Shown here one piece after another: positions 33,848 to 40,196 of a stretch of DNA of 42,574 bases. How positions within the stretch are numbered: position 1 is the first letter of the stretch; every line of letters starts with the position of its first letter. The notes under the pieces were generated by a model. It did no database searches. It was not told the origin of the DNA and worked only from the letters and a program-made list of their open reading frames with translations. Source of the DNA: a virus (lineage: Duplodnaviria; Heunggongvirae; Uroviricota; Caudoviricetes); IMG/VR virus record IMGVR_UViG_2675903468_000002, positions 1-42,574 of that record; one strand, written 5' to 3'. A program made the translations under genes and the position numbers.

Positions 33848-34068
33848 ACGGCACCTCCCAGACGCTTAAACATTTTTCCAGACAGAAATACCGCCAGCGG
33901 GTAACTGATGGTGTAGCTACGCCCCTGTAGTTCGCACACGACTTTCTGGCTTTCAGCGTTGACTAGGCAAACCCGCAGAACGTGACCGTTGCTGGTGGCG
34001 AACCACTGCCCCACACGGGGGCAACGGTTGTATCGGTGATACAGGGAATTAACGATGCGGCGAATCAT
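33844..34068 (-). CDS. Small hypothetical protein
   Basis: 74 aa with strong AGGAGG RBS; function unknown. Confidence 0.5.
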   Translation of the reverse strand: MIRRIVNSLYHRYNRCPRVGQWFATSNGHVLRVCLVNAESQKVVCELQGRSYTISYPLAVFLSGKMFKRLGGAV

Positions 34069-34616
34069 GGGTGCGCCTCCTTGTCAGAACCATTAAGTCT
34101 GGAATCAACAAGTGCAGCGCCAAAAACAGCATCTCCTACACGGTCATACAGCTTGCTCGCCAGCGGAGATTCAACGGCCTTAAGCATGGGGTAAAGCTGG
34201 CTTTTCCAGATTTGATGGATTTCACGCAAATGCAGGTATACGCCTCTGGCGTTTCGTGCAACAGCTGACATATCAACCGCGTCAGCACCAGATAAATTCT
34301 TCTCCATCTGGTTAAAGGCGTTGATGTATGCCTCTTTGAACCGGGCTGCACGTTTGCCAGTAAAGCCCATTGCCAGGAACGCGAAGCCATCGCGGGTGAT
34401 TTGATAGCAAGGTAGTTTGCGGCCTGTGCAATCGGTGTAATCACTCACCGAAAAATTGCGGGCAGTGAATGATGCGGAGCATTCAAGCGTGCGGATCTTT
34501 TTCAGTACATCGTCATGACGTTTGGAGAAGAAGTTGGCAACAGCCAGGGATGAAGTAACAGCCTGACCATCAACGATGGCAATTTCAGGTTGAGTGAGGG
34601 TTGGGATCGTAGCCAT
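34065..34616 (-). CDS. Rha-family phage regulatory protein
   Basis: Start MATIPTLTQPEIAIVDGQAVTSSLAVANFFSKRHDDVLKKIR with AAGAGG RBS; Rha-type domain. The ORF-track extension to 34937 starts with TTG and contains a terminator, so it is not used. Confidence 0.7.
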   Translation of the reverse strand: MATIPTLTQPEIAIVDGQAVTSSLAVANFFSKRHDDVLKKIRTLECSASFTARNFSVSDYTDCTGRKLPCYQITRDGFAFLAMGFTGKRAARFKEAYINAFNQMEKNLSGADAVDMSAVARNARGVYLHLREIHQIWKSQLYPMLKAVESPLASKLYDRVGDAVFGAALVDSRLNGSDKEAHP

Positions 34617-34632
34617 GATGGCAGCCTCTTTG

Positions 34633-34658
34633 GTGATTTTAAATAACTCACCACCAAG
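34633..34658 (-). promoter_or_regulatory. Inverted repeat overlapping a candidate promoter just upstream of the Rha gene
   Basis: GGTGA-ttttaaataac-TCACC palindrome within an AT-rich TTATTTAAAAT stretch ~20 nt upstream of the Rha start. Confidence 0.3.
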
Positions 34659-34781
34659 GCTTTCCACGACCTTATTGGTGGTGAGACGTACAGGGGTGGA
34701 AATACCGGTCACCAAAGAACCCGGCCCAACCGAAGTTGGCCCTGCACGCCCCACCATAATTTGGGCGTAATGCTGCTCATG

Positions 34782-34808
34782 ACACAAAAAAACCGCAAGA
34801 GCGCGGTT
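34782..34808 (-). terminator. Intrinsic terminator downstream of the Lar-like gene
   Basis: Minus strand AACCGC-GCUCUU-GCGGUU followed by UUUUUUUGUG. Confidence 0.6.
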
Positions 34809-34933
34809 GTGCGCTTTGGTGAATTCCGGGTTTCCACGCCCGGCACCCGCTTTATAAGGTGCTGGAATAGTGTAACGTCCCGAAATTGCAGAATCAATAT
34901 GTTGGTTGCGGATCATTTTGTACCTACTCGCCG

Positions 34934-35143
34934 TCAATCCGCGTTTTCGCGCTGATTCCAGTCATGAACAGCACGTTCTTTCGAATCAGGGATCTGGTTT
35001 GCGTTACAGCAAGTACATGCGACGTAATAACCATCATCGCCATCCAGAAAATATTTCACCTCAATGAGTTGTACTTCCGGATTTCCGCAGAACGGGCAAG
35101 GTTTCAGATCGACATCACCAGTTACACACGTCTTGGTTTGCAT
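34934..35143 (-). CDS. Small zinc-ribbon protein, Lar-like restriction-alleviation family candidate
   Basis: 69 aa with CPFCG...CTCC cysteine motif; TAATG overlap with the upstream antirepressor gene suggests translational coupling. Confidence 0.5.
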   Translation of the reverse strand: MQTKTCVTGDVDLKPCPFCGNPEVQLIEVKYFLDGDDGYYVACTCCNANQIPDSKERAVHDWNQRENAD

Positions 35144-36003
35144 TATTTGTTCTCCTGTAAAAGATTCGCGAGCTCAGTGTTATGGGTAAACAGCCCATCC
35201 CATGTTTTCTTCATCGGTAGTTCACCGTTCAGATAATGGCGATATAACCAGGCGGCACCTTTTTTCTTCAGGAGTGGTTTGAAAATCTCGCGCATTTCCC
35301 CGTTTTCCTGCTCAACCTGCCCAGAACGCTCAGTCAGGTATTGGTCACGTGCATACGCTTTTACACGCCAGCGCGGATACATAGCCTCCGGACGGTCGTC
35401 ATACAGCCAGTTACGCTCTTCAAGGAACGCATTAATCTGACGAGTGTTTACACCGTTGAGTTGTTTGCAGAACTGCACAGGAGTGATGCCATCGGCGAGA
35501 TGGCTTTCGAGTTTGCTGATGTAGCGAGCCTGACGCTCTGCATACCCGAGAGCAAGGCGTTCGGATTTTTTGGCTTCAATCCACGCTTCAGCAGCAGCGA
35601 TCGGATCGTCAAAGTCTGGAATAGTGTTTGAAGAAGGCGTTGCTTTACGAAAATACGCCTGCTCCATTTTTTCGAAGAACGACCAGGCCTCGTCTGTATC
35701 GACGATTTTTGACATGCGGGCAGCGCCGCGTTCTGTCCAGAGAGTGAGTGAACGCGCATTTCTTCCAACAGAGTGACCAATAGTCACTCTGTCCTTAAAT
35801 GCTTTCAGGGCATCACCAGTTAAAAGAAAATAATGTTTCCCATCTTCAAAGCGCTCAAGATTGCGCGACAGATTTTTACGGATATTAGCTTCATCCGTGC
35901 CATATCCCGCCGCCAGCGTTTCAGTGGTAACTACGCGTACCCCCTGCCACTCAATCACTGGCAGGTTTTCAGGGTTGACTAATTTTTGTTTATTGATCAT
36001 CAT
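35143..36003 (-). CDS. Antirepressor-like protein (ORF6N/Bro-N-type N-terminal domain, KilA-C-like C-terminus)
   Basis: 286 aa; N-terminal LPVIEWQGVRVVTTETLAAGYGTDEANIRKNLSRNLERFEDGKHYF resembles phage antirepressor N-domains. Confidence 0.6.
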   Translation of the reverse strand: MMINKQKLVNPENLPVIEWQGVRVVTTETLAAGYGTDEANIRKNLSRNLERFEDGKHYFLLTGDALKAFKDRVTIGHSVGRNARSLTLWTERGAARMSKIVDTDEAWSFFEKMEQAYFRKATPSSNTIPDFDDPIAAAEAWIEAKKSERLALGYAERQARYISKLESHLADGITPVQFCKQLNGVNTRQINAFLEERNWLYDDRPEAMYPRWRVKAYARDQYLTERSGQVEQENGEMREIFKPLLKKKGAAWLYRHYLNGELPMKKTWDGLFTHNTELANLLQENK

Positions 36004-36078: not shown

Positions 36079-36378
36079 TCATCGCGTGGACATTTCTGAT
36101 GAATCACTCTGCCCATCTTCCGTGCGCGCTAGGCTTGGATTTGAAATTTTGCGTAACGAATCAGGAATTCCATCTTCAGGGTGAGGATAAAGATCTGGCC
36201 TTAAGCCATGTGGCGTGACCTTCCATGCAACTACTTCACATACGCGTAAAACAAAACGAGCAGGAATTGTGTTTTTTGAAAACCACTGATTCACCGCTTG
36301 CGGAGTTACACCAAGGTTTCGTGCAATGGCATTTTGCGCAATTAATGCGCGAAGTACGTCGTAATCATTTCCTTTCAT
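36079..36378 (-). CDS. Cro-like HTH regulator (first gene of the rightward early operon)
   Basis: 99 aa; HTH LRALIAQNAIARNLGVTPQAVNQWF; divergent from the cI-like gene across a 133-bp operator region. Confidence 0.65.
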   Translation of the reverse strand: MKGNDYDVLRALIAQNAIARNLGVTPQAVNQWFSKNTIPARFVLRVCEVVAWKVTPHGLRPDLYPHPEDGIPDSLRKISNPSLARTEDGQSDSSEMSTR

Positions 36379-36511: not shown

Positions 36512-37201
36512 ATGAAGAACGTCAAAAACACGGAAAATCGAATAGCCGCGATGCTGAAAGCAAAAGGATGGACTCAGGCTCAACTGGCCCGCAAGTTAGG
36601 TGTGAGTGCGCAATCAGTGCAGTACTGGACAACAGGAAAAACATTTCCACGGAGTGATAAGCTCGCGCATTTATCAGAGATTAGCGGTTATCCACAATCC
36701 TGGTTCTTAGGTGAAGACTCCTCACCAACCTTTTCCTCGCAAGAGAAACACCAGACAAGAACAGATAGCGTCGTGTTTAATGTCCTTGATGTTGAGTTTA
36801 GTTGCGGTGATGGAACTCATGTCCGTGGTGACTTGATAGATGTAGTGCGCTCAATAGAACTTGATCCTGAATATGCCCGACGTCTTGTTGGAAATCGGGC
36901 ATTCAAAAATATAGAAATAGGTAACGCCAGAGGAGACAGTATGGCTCCCACAATCTCACCTGGCGACCTTCTTTTTCTTGATAAGACAGTAACTTATTTT
37001 GATGGCGATGGTATTTATGCATTTTGTTTTGATGGAGAATGCTACGTGAAAAGGCTTCAAAAAATTGGAAGCAAAATCATGGTGTTATCTGATAACCCCA
37101 ATTATCAACCATGGAGCATCGAAAAAGAGGGGTTAGCTCTGCTTTATATCCAGTCTAAAGTGATCTCATCAGTACCATTCAACATAAACAGATTTGGTTA
37201 G
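36512..37201 (+). CDS. cI: CI-type prophage repressor (HTH plus LexA-like S24 autopeptidase domain)
   Basis: 229 aa; HTH GWTQAQLARKLGVSAQSVQYWTTGK; C-terminal S24 domain with GDSMAPTISPGDLLFLDK and downstream Lys. Confidence 0.85.
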   Translation: MKNVKNTENRIAAMLKAKGWTQAQLARKLGVSAQSVQYWTTGKTFPRSDKLAHLSEISGYPQSWFLGEDSSPTFSSQEKHQTRTDSVVFNVLDVEFSCGDGTHVRGDLIDVVRSIELDPEYARRLVGNRAFKNIEIGNARGDSMAPTISPGDLLFLDKTVTYFDGDGIYAFCFDGECYVKRLQKIGSKIMVLSDNPNYQPWSIEKEGLALLYIQSKVISSVPFNINRFG

Positions 37202-37212
37202 TCTTTGATTTT

Positions 37213-37236
37213 AACGGGCTTTGCCCGTTTTTTTCT
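37213..37236 (+). terminator. Intrinsic terminator after the repressor gene
   Basis: AACGGGC-TTT-GCCCGTT followed by TTTTTTT. Confidence 0.7.
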
Positions 37237-37264: not shown

Positions 37265-37293
37265 TTGACAGCCTATTTCCCAAAGCATAATAT
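37265..37293 (+). promoter_or_regulatory. PL-like early-left promoter with operator-like palindrome
   Basis: TTGACA-17 nt-TAATAT; flanked by ATCAAT and the ATCAATTATAACTTGAT palindrome sharing half-sites with the OR region. Confidence 0.5.
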
Positions 37294-37346: not shown

Positions 37347-37799
37347 ATGAAGACACTAAAAGCAACTCCAGAAACAACTAATTTTATCAACTGCGGCTGT
37401 GTTACGCTTAAGGGCTTAGAACTTGATTCCTTTGCATTAAATATTGCAAATTTGCTAAGTGCTGTACGCACATTCCATCTTCTGGATTGTGCTCGCTCAA
37501 AGGAACTGGGCATTGAGGTAATGGAATTTATCCATGAATATGCTCTATCTGCTGCTTCTCCTGCACAACAAAAACAATCCTTCCCTGAAAGCTGGCTGGT
37601 TAACCTTCGCACCCAACGCGAAGCCTGCGGCTTAACAACAGCCGAACTCGCCAGGCTGCTCGCTCTTGATGAAGAAATCATCATCCAGTGGGAGAGCGGA
37701 GAGTATGAACCAACCATCAGTATGCTTATCCCACTGGCAAATATTCTTGGCTGCGATCCGATGTGGTTATTGACTGGTAGCAATGCTGCAAAGGAGTAA
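37347..37799 (+). CDS. HTH (XRE-type) protein with N-terminal domain of unknown function; first gene of early-left operon
   Basis: 150 aa; C-terminal HTH CGLTTAELARLLALDEEIIIQWESGEYEPT; not Arg-rich and not N-like. Confidence 0.6.
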   Translation: MKTLKATPETTNFINCGCVTLKGLELDSFALNIANLLSAVRTFHLLDCARSKELGIEVMEFIHEYALSAASPAQQKQSFPESWLVNLRTQREACGLTTAELARLLALDEEIIIQWESGEYEPTISMLIPLANILGCDPMWLLTGSNAAKE

Positions 37800-38389: not shown

Positions 38390-38967
38390 ATCATTCAGAG
38401 TTCCGACCAGAAGTTACGCCACATGGCATAAAAATTGGCAATACAACCATTGATTATGTTGAGGCCGTACAGCGGCTTAATGATGGTGAATACGATTATC
38501 CAAACTCACACGGTTTAAGAATCATGCAATGTATTGCAGAAGCCGATGATGCAGGGTTGCTGGGACGATTTTCAGTCGATATGAAGGTTGCTCAGTGGCG
38601 ATGGCTGTATGTGACTACGTTTATAAATGAAGAGGAAGACAAGAACGGTACCGTTGATATCCCTAACGATAACGGAACTACAGATCACGCGGTTATTTAC
38701 AAGGGTAAACATGGTTGCCTGAGTATCTACCCCGGACCACTTCGTATTGCCCTGCAAAACCACGTCGAATGGGGATTTATTGAAAAATATGGCGAAGCTG
38801 AAGGCATGGGGCGAGTTCTGTTTCTCTATCAAAAAATGCTCATCGCAGATCCTGATAATGGTTTCATTATTTCTGCTATGGGGCGCGAAGGGCTTGAACT
38901 CCTTCTGGATGAAATGATGAACGACCTGAATACTCATGGTATGCCAGAAGCGCCAGTGACACATTAA
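38386..38967 (+). CDS. Hypothetical protein (193 aa), no recognisable motif
   Basis: Start MNHSEFRPEVTPHG with AAGGAG RBS overlapping the upstream stop; the longer ORF-track start at 38329 lacks an RBS. Confidence 0.55.
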   Translation: MNHSEFRPEVTPHGIKIGNTTIDYVEAVQRLNDGEYDYPNSHGLRIMQCIAEADDAGLLGRFSVDMKVAQWRWLYVTTFINEEEDKNGTVDIPNDNGTTDHAVIYKGKHGCLSIYPGPLRIALQNHVEWGFIEKYGEAEGMGRVLFLYQKMLIADPDNGFIISAMGREGLELLLDEMMNDLNTHGMPEAPVTH

Positions 38968-39012
38968 ATATTAAGAAGAATATAATTCTTCCATCTTTTA
39001 CCAACCGTTTAT

Positions 39013-39120
39013 ATGAAAAGCAACCGTGAATTAAACAGAGTAAAACTGATTTTAATCCTTGCCACAGTACTGACACTAACTGAAATCATTATTCTCTTTC
39101 TTGCGCTGTCAGTCGGTTAA
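39013..39120 (+). CDS. Small membrane peptide (35 aa), hypothetical
   Basis: MKSNRELNRVKLILILATVLTLTEIIILFLALSVG; single TM helix. Confidence 0.3.
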   Translation: MKSNRELNRVKLILILATVLTLTEIIILFLALSVG

Positions 39121-39143
39121 AAATATCGGGATACCACAGACCA

Positions 39144-39332
39144 ATGAGACTGTATTTCACAATAGTAATTTTACTGGCAATTATCGCATGCATTTACGGA
39201 TTACTCGTTCCGTTCCTTATATCCATGAAGGATACGATAGCAGTTATTTCTGGCTTTGCACTGGCGTTTCTGACCCCGCCCTGCATTTATGCCATTTACA
39301 AGGGTCTTTCTTTCGCTAAGGATAAAAGATGA
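39144..39332 (+). CDS. Small two-TM membrane protein coupled to the SPFH gene
   Basis: 62 aa, MRLYFTIVILLAIIACIYGLLVPFLISM...; stop overlaps the SPFH start (ATGA). Confidence 0.5.
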   Translation: MRLYFTIVILLAIIACIYGLLVPFLISMKDTIAVISGFALAFLTPPCIYAIYKGLSFAKDKR

Positions 39333-40156
39333 AAAAAATTATTTTTGCTTTAGCCATTGTTCTGCCGACTATTGGCCTTGTCGGTTGCGATCGCGTTGAA
39401 CCAGGTAATGTTGGCATCAAGGTAAATAAACTGGGCGACGACAAAGGCGTCGGTGAGGTGGTCGGTGTTGGTCGCTACTGGACTGGCTGGAATACTGAAG
39501 TTTATATCTTCCCCACCTTCAAACAAATGAAGACCTACGATGAACCGTTCAGTTTCCAGATGAGTGACGGTACAACCATCGGCTATCACATTGGCGTGGC
39601 CTACAAAGTTGATCCATCCAAAGTTACCACGGTGTTTCAGACCTACCGCAAAGGCGTGGATGACATTACCGACACTGACCTGCGCCAGAAGATCGCCGAC
39701 GCACTCAACCGACTGGCCAGCAAAATGACCACTGACAAATTTATCGACGGCGGCAAGTCTGAGCTGCTGGATGAAGCTCTTAAAGACATTCAGGCAGAGA
39801 TGACACCTATCGGTATTCAGGTAATGAGCCTCTCATATGTGGGTAAGCCGGAGTACCCGCCAACCGTTATCGACAGCATTAATGCCAAAGTCACGGCAAA
39901 CCAGAAAACCCTGCAGCGCGAGCAGGAAGTCAAGCAACGTGAAGCGGAGGCCAACATGCTACGTGCGGAAGCTGCCGGACAGGCTGATGCCATTCGAACA
40001 AAAGCCCAGGCAGAAGCCGATGCCATTCGTTTACGCGGCGAAGCTCTACGCCAGAACCCAGGCGTCATGGAGCTGGAAGCCATCAACAAGTGGAACGGTA
40101 CACTGCCGCAATACATGACCAGTGGTGCCAATACACCATTTATCCAGATTAAATAA
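39329..40156 (+). CDS. SPFH/band-7 (prohibitin/HflKC-like) domain lipoprotein
   Basis: 275 aa; lipobox LVGC after signal peptide; SPFH-like core followed by Ala/Glu/Arg-rich coiled coil (REQEVKQREAEANMLRAEAAGQADAIRTKAQAEADAIRLRGEA). Confidence 0.7.
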   Translation: MKKIIFALAIVLPTIGLVGCDRVEPGNVGIKVNKLGDDKGVGEVVGVGRYWTGWNTEVYIFPTFKQMKTYDEPFSFQMSDGTTIGYHIGVAYKVDPSKVTTVFQTYRKGVDDITDTDLRQKIADALNRLASKMTTDKFIDGGKSELLDEALKDIQAEMTPIGIQVMSLSYVGKPEYPPTVIDSINAKVTANQKTLQREQEVKQREAEANMLRAEAAGQADAIRTKAQAEADAIRLRGEALRQNPGVMELEAINKWNGTLPQYMTSGANTPFIQIK

Positions 40157-40196
40157 CTTATATGCCCGGCAGGCCGCCGGGCTAAGGGAAATGCAG

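Follow-up and report, generated by a model that had tools for sequence, protein, structure and literature searches.

A conserved gene pair of temperate and virulent phages encodes an SPFH/Band-7 lipoprotein and a small two-transmembrane partner

The IMG/VR record IMGVR_UViG_2675903468_000002, analyzed over its full 42,574 nucleotides (the window), is a phiP27-like lambdoid prophage that carries two overlapping plus-strand genes, one for a 62-amino-acid (aa) protein with two transmembrane (TM) segments (orf62, 39144..39332) and one for a 275-aa lipoprotein of the SPFH/Band-7 superfamily (39329..40156). We find that the two proteins are the functional unit of this locus and that both are under strong purifying selection. 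Our leading, still tentative interpretation, to which we give a little less than an even chance, is that they act in lytic growth as an early-expressed, cage-forming membrane scaffold with a two-TM adaptor that manages an inner-membrane client, and not as a dedicated factor like CIII of phage lambda. The gene pair is real, well conserved and already annotated in databases; added here are the two-gene unit and its boundaries, its natural fusions, a predicted topology, and a phylogenomic case against a lysogeny-specific role. At the DNA level the segment shares 97% identity with phage phiP27 and 100% with a prophage of E. coli E21845/O/A. The phiP27 counterpart of the larger gene is L05, labelled 'lipoprotein' or 'putative serine protease' in databases, whose product is 99.6% identical to the 275-aa protein.

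A first-pass annotation of the window had placed three open reading frames (ORFs) here, the two above and a preceding 35-aa ORF, all of which are present in the ORF list at the same positions, and had read an SPFH core and a long Ala/Glu/Arg coiled coil into the 275-aa protein. Both features are borne out. Pfam Band_7 matches residues 22–208 with 109.2 bits (cutoff 23.6, E=3e-31), covering profile positions 2–176 of 176, and phrog_200 ('lipoprotein') matches with E=3.9e-114. The AlphaFold2 (AF2) model, a monomer prediction based on an alignment of 109 diverse homologues (predicted local distance difference test, pLDDT, 90.7), consists of an N-terminal helix, an alpha/beta core (residues 20–175), a 65-residue helix (178–242) rich in Ala, Glu, Arg and Gln, and a short helix with a tail. 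A predicted structure unlike SPFH had been named in advance as evidence against the annotation, but the modelled fold is SPFH-like. Foldseek returned full-length matches in the PDB to HflC (7vhq_G, 2.5e-14), PHB2 (8rrh_B, 4.6e-14), HflK (1.1e-13), erlin and stomatin, with a probability of 1.00 to HflC, HflK, PHB, erlin, stomatin and flotillin. A family profile searched against the PDB found PHB1 (8.8e-12), HflK (2.6e-7), HflC (1.5e-6) and QmcA (1.7e-6). The 275-aa protein is a member of the SPFH/Band-7 superfamily, and its nearest characterized relatives in both types of search are the FtsH-associated HflK/HflC, which had been singled out at first pass, and the prohibitins. Against the HflK and HflC equivalog models (TIGR01933 and TIGR01932) it scores 23.1 and 25.9 bits, far below the respective cutoffs of 159.4 and 134.4, and on sequence criteria the protein is not an orthologue of either. 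Its C-terminus bears a conserved motif, K-W255-x-G257-x-L-P260; the tail that holds W255 was modelled with low confidence, which may fit folding that depends on oligomerization.

The assignment as a lipoprotein likewise stands by sequence. A signal peptide (residues 1–19) ends in the lipobox LVGC20, followed by Asp21 at position +2 and the SPFH core (22–175); the site, MKKIIFALAIVLPTIGLVGC followed by Asp, conforms to the pattern [LVI][ASTVI][GAS]C with Asp at +2. The Cys lies directly before the conserved strand 'RVEPGxVGIKV' in most of 150 cluster representatives and is invariant within family alignment A3, and 'GCDRVEPG' is common to the enterobacterial members inspected, including that of the virulent N4-like phage Pylas. 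In the Lol sorting system of Enterobacterales, Asp at +2 keeps a lipoprotein in the inner membrane. Because Asp at +2 implies this retention, the SPFH body is predicted to face the periplasm, as in HflK/C, and the protein to be an inner-membrane, periplasm-facing lipoprotein. In many database records it is listed as a 'serine protease', 'transposase', 'transferase' or 'outer membrane lipoprotein'. Pfam and NCBIfam models detected neither a protease nor a transposase domain in it. Such names look like propagated misannotations, with Asp at +2 arguing against outer-membrane sorting, and the 'serine protease' label appears to go back to an older name, 'membrane protease subunit'.

The 62-aa protein belongs to the phrog_1130 family (E=7.7e-23). 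Hydropathy and the family alignment agree with the two TM segments assigned to it earlier: residues 1–52 are hydrophobic and split by a conserved loop (P23-F-L-I-S27-M-K-D-T) into TM1 and TM2, which is followed by a basic C-terminal tail. The predicted topology is N-in/C-in with the loop in the periplasm. Pro23 is invariant and Ser27 near-invariant in the family, where the inter-helix loop reads P-x-[LM]-[IV]-S-x-x-x-T. There was no Pfam match for orf62 or 24 family members, and the family profile had no match in the PDB. A partner of the NfeD type was considered and rejected, as the protein has no PF01957 or ClpP-like domain and the profile found neither YbbJ nor any other NfeD chain in the PDB. 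The ratio of nonsynonymous to synonymous polymorphism (pN/pS), computed across related loci, is 0.12 for orf62 and 0.03 for the SPFH gene, in which 147 of 179 polymorphic sites fall on codon position 3; out-of-frame controls gave 0.86–1.01. The IMG/VR loci are all 97–100% identical and served this analysis of selection, not the comparison of gene contexts.

In the window, the stop codon of orf62 and the start codon of the SPFH gene overlap in ATGA (39329..39332, plus strand), as noted at first pass, and the AAGGA Shine-Dalgarno sequence of the SPFH gene lies within the end of orf62, an arrangement that points to translational coupling. A homologous two-TM ORF directly precedes the SPFH gene in the P2-like phage P88, the N4-like Klebsiella phage Pylas, a Klebsiella prophage and Burkholderia phage Maja. 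Further upstream homologues occur in the temperate Pseudomonas phage U2, the N4-like Xanthomonas phage PB119 and the E. coli lambdoid prophage N17, which has different neighbours. The junctions of all of these overlap or abut; in Proteus phage Mydo a 54-aa ORF lies between the homologue and the SPFH gene. The pair is conserved across lambdoid, P2-like, P1-like, N4-like, Mydo-like and BcepF1-like phages, and its two genes travel together between the first four of these groups. Among 16 species-representative loci retrieved with a narrow alignment of the SPFH family, a significant partner ORF was found just upstream in 13 and a marginal one in another. In the two exceptions, from Shigella flexneri (L097:5660-6000) and E. 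coli (L098:5660-6000), an unrelated sequence that resembles an IS1 terminal repeat abuts the SPFH ribosome-binding site in place of the partner, and the SPFH gene is intact and 96% identical.

The two proteins also occur as one. In about 15–19 of 150 divergent SPFH representatives a two-TM segment is fused in-frame at the N-terminus (phmmer E down to 3.5e-8), and one such fusion (P0003) is encoded on a P1-like phage-plasmid. The AF2 model of a fusion (pLDDT 89.2) runs from TM1 through the loop and TM2 to a Lys/Arg-rich linker, an anchor helix and the SPFH domain, a modelled layout that fits an N-in, SPFH-out topology. Natural fusions together with near-obligate adjacency within the close family suggest that the two-TM and SPFH proteins associate physically. 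A representative of 344 aa (P0133) has a two-TM-like segment at its C-terminus (residues 289–326), which may reflect fusion in reverse order, or a frame that runs on into a partner gene lying downstream. A contig from an 'archaeon' metagenome-assembled genome (JANQNF010000027.1, 5826-6252) holds the partner ORF and the start of a gene for an SPFH lipoprotein, which matches the window protein at 64% identity over residues 1–81; bacterial or phage contamination or mis-binning is the more likely origin than a true archaeal locus. Beyond the close family, a universal two-TM partner was rejected: none lies upstream of the SPFH gene in the LUZ24-like phage Ab22, which has a different single-TM ORF there, in the Ea21-4-like phage Tian, which has a soluble ORF, or in Kayvirus, where the neighbour MbpV has one TM segment.

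The SPFH protein was found in 737 phage records by tblastn, some only distantly related. Full-length relatives with 37–75% identity are present in strictly virulent groups, namely N4-like Schitoviridae, Mydovirus, other ~145-kb myoviruses, Bruynoghevirus, Kolesnikvirus and Bcepfunavirus; named strictly virulent carriers are the N4-like Pylas and PB119, Mydo, the BcepF1-like Maja, and LUZ24-like and Ea21-4-like phages. Identity is 75% between the SPFH protein of an E. coli prophage and that of a virulent N4-like phage of Klebsiella. More distant relatives occur in Kayvirus, Enterococcus Herelleviridae, phiCbK-like, crAss-like and Lak phages and haloarchaeal viruses, a structure search found SPFH proteins in many viruses including giant viruses, and an exhaustive search yielded 229 clusters at the 50% identity level (E<1e-30). 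A DNA search detected the gene in P1-family phage records. It is also carried by 612 plasmids, of which 593 are non-mobilizable and most are 92–120 kb, the size of phage-plasmids; Yersinia pestis pMT1-type plasmids are among them. The cassette is present in 393 of 5426 complete E. coli genomes (about 7%). On P1-like phage-plasmids (L086:6459-7034, L087:6729-7304) the SPFH gene stands among tRNA genes for Asn, Thr, Ser and Ile, with a Tad2-family anti-Thoeris gene about 0.7 kb downstream, which suggests an accessory or counter-defence neighbourhood.

In the window, a gene for a CI-type repressor (36512-37201; helix-turn-helix (HTH) and Peptidase_S24 domains), with a divergent YdaS/Cro-like gene at 36079-36378, is followed downstream by a strong intrinsic terminator (37213-37229) and a near-consensus, candidate pL-type promoter (TTGACA-17-TAATAT, 37265..37293, plus strand). 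The terminator scan predicted no plus-strand terminator between 37293 and 41328, i.e., up to xis/int, and the promoter/terminator scan found no moron-style pair bracketing the module. As neither is present, the module appears to belong to a pL-type early-left operon, as judged from consensus promoter and terminator sequences. The layout of the immunity region is clear, and placement of the module in an early-left operon had also been proposed at first pass. The first gene of the operon (37347-37799), in the position of N in lambda, encodes an HTH_3 protein of 150 aa with a match (8.4e-77) to PHROG 4836, 'CII-like regulator'. On the minus strand beside the immunity region are two antirepressor-type genes, one with Rha and Ash domains (34065-34937) and one with ORF6N and KilAC ANT domains (35143-36003). 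In virulent and P1/P2-type phages the family sits among early or middle lytic genes: the pair lies in the early operon (P88), between RNA polymerase II genes and dUTPase/replication genes (Pylas), or among DNA-metabolism genes (Mydo).

Such a distribution bears directly on the role in lysogeny that the first-pass annotation had offered, in which the phage SPFH protein replaces CIII, inhibiting or redirecting FtsH, stabilizing a CII-like activator and raising the frequency of lysogenization. The idea draws on the nearest relatives, HflK/C and prohibitins, being FtsH modulators, on the predicted periplasmic orientation shared with HflK/C, and on the location in a pL-type operon about 1.5 kb downstream of the HTH protein that matches the 'CII-like regulator' PHROG. 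No CIII-like sequence was detected: the small ORFs tested gave no Pfam match to the CIII family (PF02061), and a tblastn search with lambda CIII reached E=0.5 at best. Yet the module is common in strictly virulent and in P1/P2-type phages. The lysogeny switches of P2-like and P1-like phages are not known to use CII/FtsH. Moreover, CII is a cytoplasmic substrate of FtsH whereas the SPFH protein is predicted to be periplasmic, and the HflK and HflC equivalog cutoffs were failed by a wide gap (23 and 26 bits against 159 and 134). Because the family is abundant in virulent and P1/P2-type phages and sits in early lytic operons, we regard a CIII substitute as very unlikely, and the lysogeny role proposed at first pass is not supported. 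A link to FtsH and CII has already been raised in phage genome papers, as an untested idea (PMC10269572, PMC4936722), and the inference that a phage HflC controls lysogeny is poorly founded.

The occurrence of the same module in strictly virulent phages argues instead for a general job in the lytic cycle. Going by its predicted full-length architecture and its solved relatives, the SPFH protein might assemble into a closed oligomeric cage that arches like a dome over part of the inner membrane. The two-TM partner would supply a membrane-spanning element at or inside the cage rim, with its conserved periplasmic loop contacting the SPFH base. Judging from gene position, the pair would be transcribed with the early lytic pL-type operon and not as a lysogen-expressed moron. 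Most likely, the cage would then enclose or sequester a conserved client in the host inner membrane, and capture of this client could preserve the membrane of the infected cell, or phage membrane proteins, up to lysis. FtsH heads the candidate clients, since all characterized members of the nearest clade work with a protease of the FtsH type, on the same side of the membrane; in this broader sense a link to FtsH is possible by analogy. A more pointed version would make the pair a widespread 'viral prohibitin' system whose early periplasmic cage captures FtsH or a membrane-acting abortive-infection effector and so neutralizes host quality control or defence. We consider it improbable, at about a one-in-five level of belief; if true, it would be a counter-measure of virulent and temperate phages mechanistically unlike any described anti-defence protein.

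Several points weigh against the lytic-scaffold interpretation. Literature searches on phage members yielded no experimental or functional study, and oligomerization, localization and client are all inferred, from sequence and structural modelling. The SPFH protein is only about 15–18% identical to HflK/C, fails their equivalog models, and has neither their TM anchor nor the heterodimer logic of K and C. Distant homologues are found in haloarchaeal viruses, whose hosts are not known to have FtsH, so that FtsH could not be a universal client. As Ab22, Tian and Kayvirus do without the two-TM partner, SPFH proteins in general would not need it to function. The timing of expression is judged from a simple promoter/terminator scan that covers spacers of 16–18 nt. 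Outside its range, GTGACA (38956-38961) and a perfect TATAAT (38981-38986), separated by 19 nt, lie just after the stop of the upstream gene, the TATAAT within a 7-bp inverted repeat, GAAGAAT-ATA-ATTCTTC (38975-38991); this could be a weak autonomous promoter/operator for the 35-aa ORF and the SPFH module.

The early-gene position in virulent and temperate phages that speaks for a lytic scaffold would also suit superinfection exclusion, the other role offered at first pass, in which the early-expressed cage and the two-TM protein block passage of DNA from later-arriving phages across the inner membrane. Known exclusion proteins for comparison are T4 Imm and Sp and the lipoprotein Ltp of a streptococcal prophage. 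The combination of a small membrane protein with an extracytoplasmic lipoprotein at the inner membrane also fits, as does the accessory region of P1-like phage-plasmids in which the gene adjoins the anti-Thoeris gene Tad2. No homology to known exclusion proteins or PADLOC models was found, however: the small ORFs and the two-TM family had no Pfam or PHROG match to T4 Imm, P22 gp17-type or other exclusion families, and the 5027 defence-protein models of PADLOC-DB had no match at E<=0.1 for the three ORFs or their neighbours. A pN/pS of 0.03 and 75% identity between E. coli prophage and virulent Klebsiella phage are, in addition, atypical for arms-race genes. Exclusion is the strongest of the rival explanations but in our view still unlikely. 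The lack of a PADLOC match also led us to reject a reading as a defence system. We likewise set aside as evidence for exclusion the 'superinfection exclusion protein' beside the SPFH gene of PhiSH19, which is a soluble GP17 protein (PF17420) whose gene lies 205 bp away; the SPFH protein of PhiSH19 is only remotely similar to that of the window.

Somewhat less likely again is a helper of lysis timing or secretion, i.e., a scaffold that organizes or restrains holins and other phage envelope proteins, or that promotes the export of lytic enzymes through Sec. Organizing membrane protein complexes is an established function of SPFH scaffolds, and in Kayvirus mbpV-mbpS forms its own transcription unit between lysK and tgl; MbpS was suggested by its authors to aid export of Tgl (PMC7150955). 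But identity to the Kayvirus protein is only about 25%, and the partner there is another one. The module moreover lies among early genes, far from the lysis cassette, both in the window and in phages of the N4-like, Mydo-like, P2-like and P1-like groups. At the far end of the scale, below even the CIII-like role and with next to no weight from us, stands a lysogenic-conversion lipoprotein, exposed on the surface or on vesicles to the benefit of the host, e.g., in virulence or immune stimulation. A possible precedent is PM0222, which is described as an HflK/C-like prophage SPFH protein of Pasteurella multocida secreted in outer membrane vesicles and acting through TLR1/2 (PMC9872710). The gene is, moreover, frequent in pathogenic E. 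coli, in Stx-phage backgrounds and on Y. pestis pMT1-type plasmids. Asp at +2, however, predicts retention in the inner membrane, the scan found no moron-typical promoter/terminator pair, and the gene is present in virulent phages.

The first-pass annotation had counted the 35-aa ORF (orf35, 39013..39120, plus strand) as a TM peptide of the same module. The ORF is there and hydropathy supports one TM segment; its place in the module does not stand. Among related loci its pN/pS is 0.52, against 0.03 for the SPFH gene and 0.12 for orf62, although all copies with a locatable start keep the full 35 codons and carry conservative substitutions. The ORF lacks a Shine-Dalgarno sequence, a PHROG or Pfam match and a PGAP annotation, and it occurs in 76 E. 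coli genomes versus 393 for the SPFH cassette. With these genome counts, no Shine-Dalgarno sequence and no PGAP annotation, orf35 lies outside the conserved module and is a doubtful gene. A third conserved small-peptide component was rejected because orf35 occurs only with flanks of the phiP27 type; Pylas gp27 and Mydo gp155 are unrelated to it. Many E. coli cassette matches begin only at about window position 39139, and several end at 40169-40183 (query 1220-1234). A GC-rich hairpin 3' of the SPFH stop codon (GCCCGGC-AGGCC-GCCGGGC, 40164..40182, plus strand; −17.1 kcal/mol) marks the right-hand end of this shuffled cassette. It has no T-run, was not called as a terminator, and its z of −1.6 is not significant alone; it is possibly an RNA-stabilizing element and not a classical terminator.

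SPFH cages (HflK/C, prohibitin, stomatin, flotillin, erlin) were visualized only recently, and work on their clients is still in progress. Phages of many lineages carry a compact, lipid-anchored version, predicted to face the periplasm, with a dedicated two-TM partner. Identification of its client would show what phages must control at the inner membrane in the lytic cycle, and the pair would offer a minimal, genetically tractable SPFH system and a route to a widespread function. For annotation, the recurring 'serine protease' label is corrected.

Among known systems, lambda CIII, a 54-aa cytoplasmic amphipathic peptide that is a competitive substrate and inhibitor of FtsH, has at most two things in common with the pair, FtsH as a possible target and a comparable place in a pL-type operon; the two are unrelated in sequence and structure, and the phage lipoprotein is predicted to lie in another cellular compartment. 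Co-translated SPFH-NfeD operons also have a small membrane protein encoded upstream. QmcA and YqiK face the cytoplasm, in contrast to the predicted periplasmic orientation of the phage protein. In these operons (QmcA-YbbJ, PDB 8z5g; YqiK-YqiJ; archaeal stomatin-STOPP) the partner differs from that of the phage, which has only two TM helices and lacks both the OB-fold of NfeD and a protease domain. Mitochondrial PHB1/PHB2 (PDB 8rrh, 9o9z) gave the best profile match (E=8.8e-12) and are of similar size (about 272–299 aa); prohibitin forms cages and associates with the m-AAA protease, which is of the FtsH type, on the intermembrane-space side, which is topologically equivalent, but it is a eukaryotic heteromer with N-terminal TM anchors and no small two-TM partner. 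E. coli HflK/HflC, an SPFH complex that cages FtsH (PDB 7vhp, 7vhq, 7wi3, 9cz2), are the top structural match and share the membrane anchor, the SPFH core, the long coiled-coil helix and the C-terminal closing segment, as well as the periplasmic side, which is predicted for the phage protein. They are a pair of 419 and 334 aa with N-terminal TM helices, whereas the phage has a single gene for a lipid-anchored protein of about 275 aa with about 15–18% identity, whose neighbour is not a second, paralogous TM-anchored subunit but a 62-aa two-TM protein lacking an SPFH domain. The closest systems are phiP27 L05, P88 gp11-gp12, Pylas gp28-gp29, Maja gp114-gp113 and PHROGs 200 and 1130, which represent the same family and the same pair, with no difference of substance.

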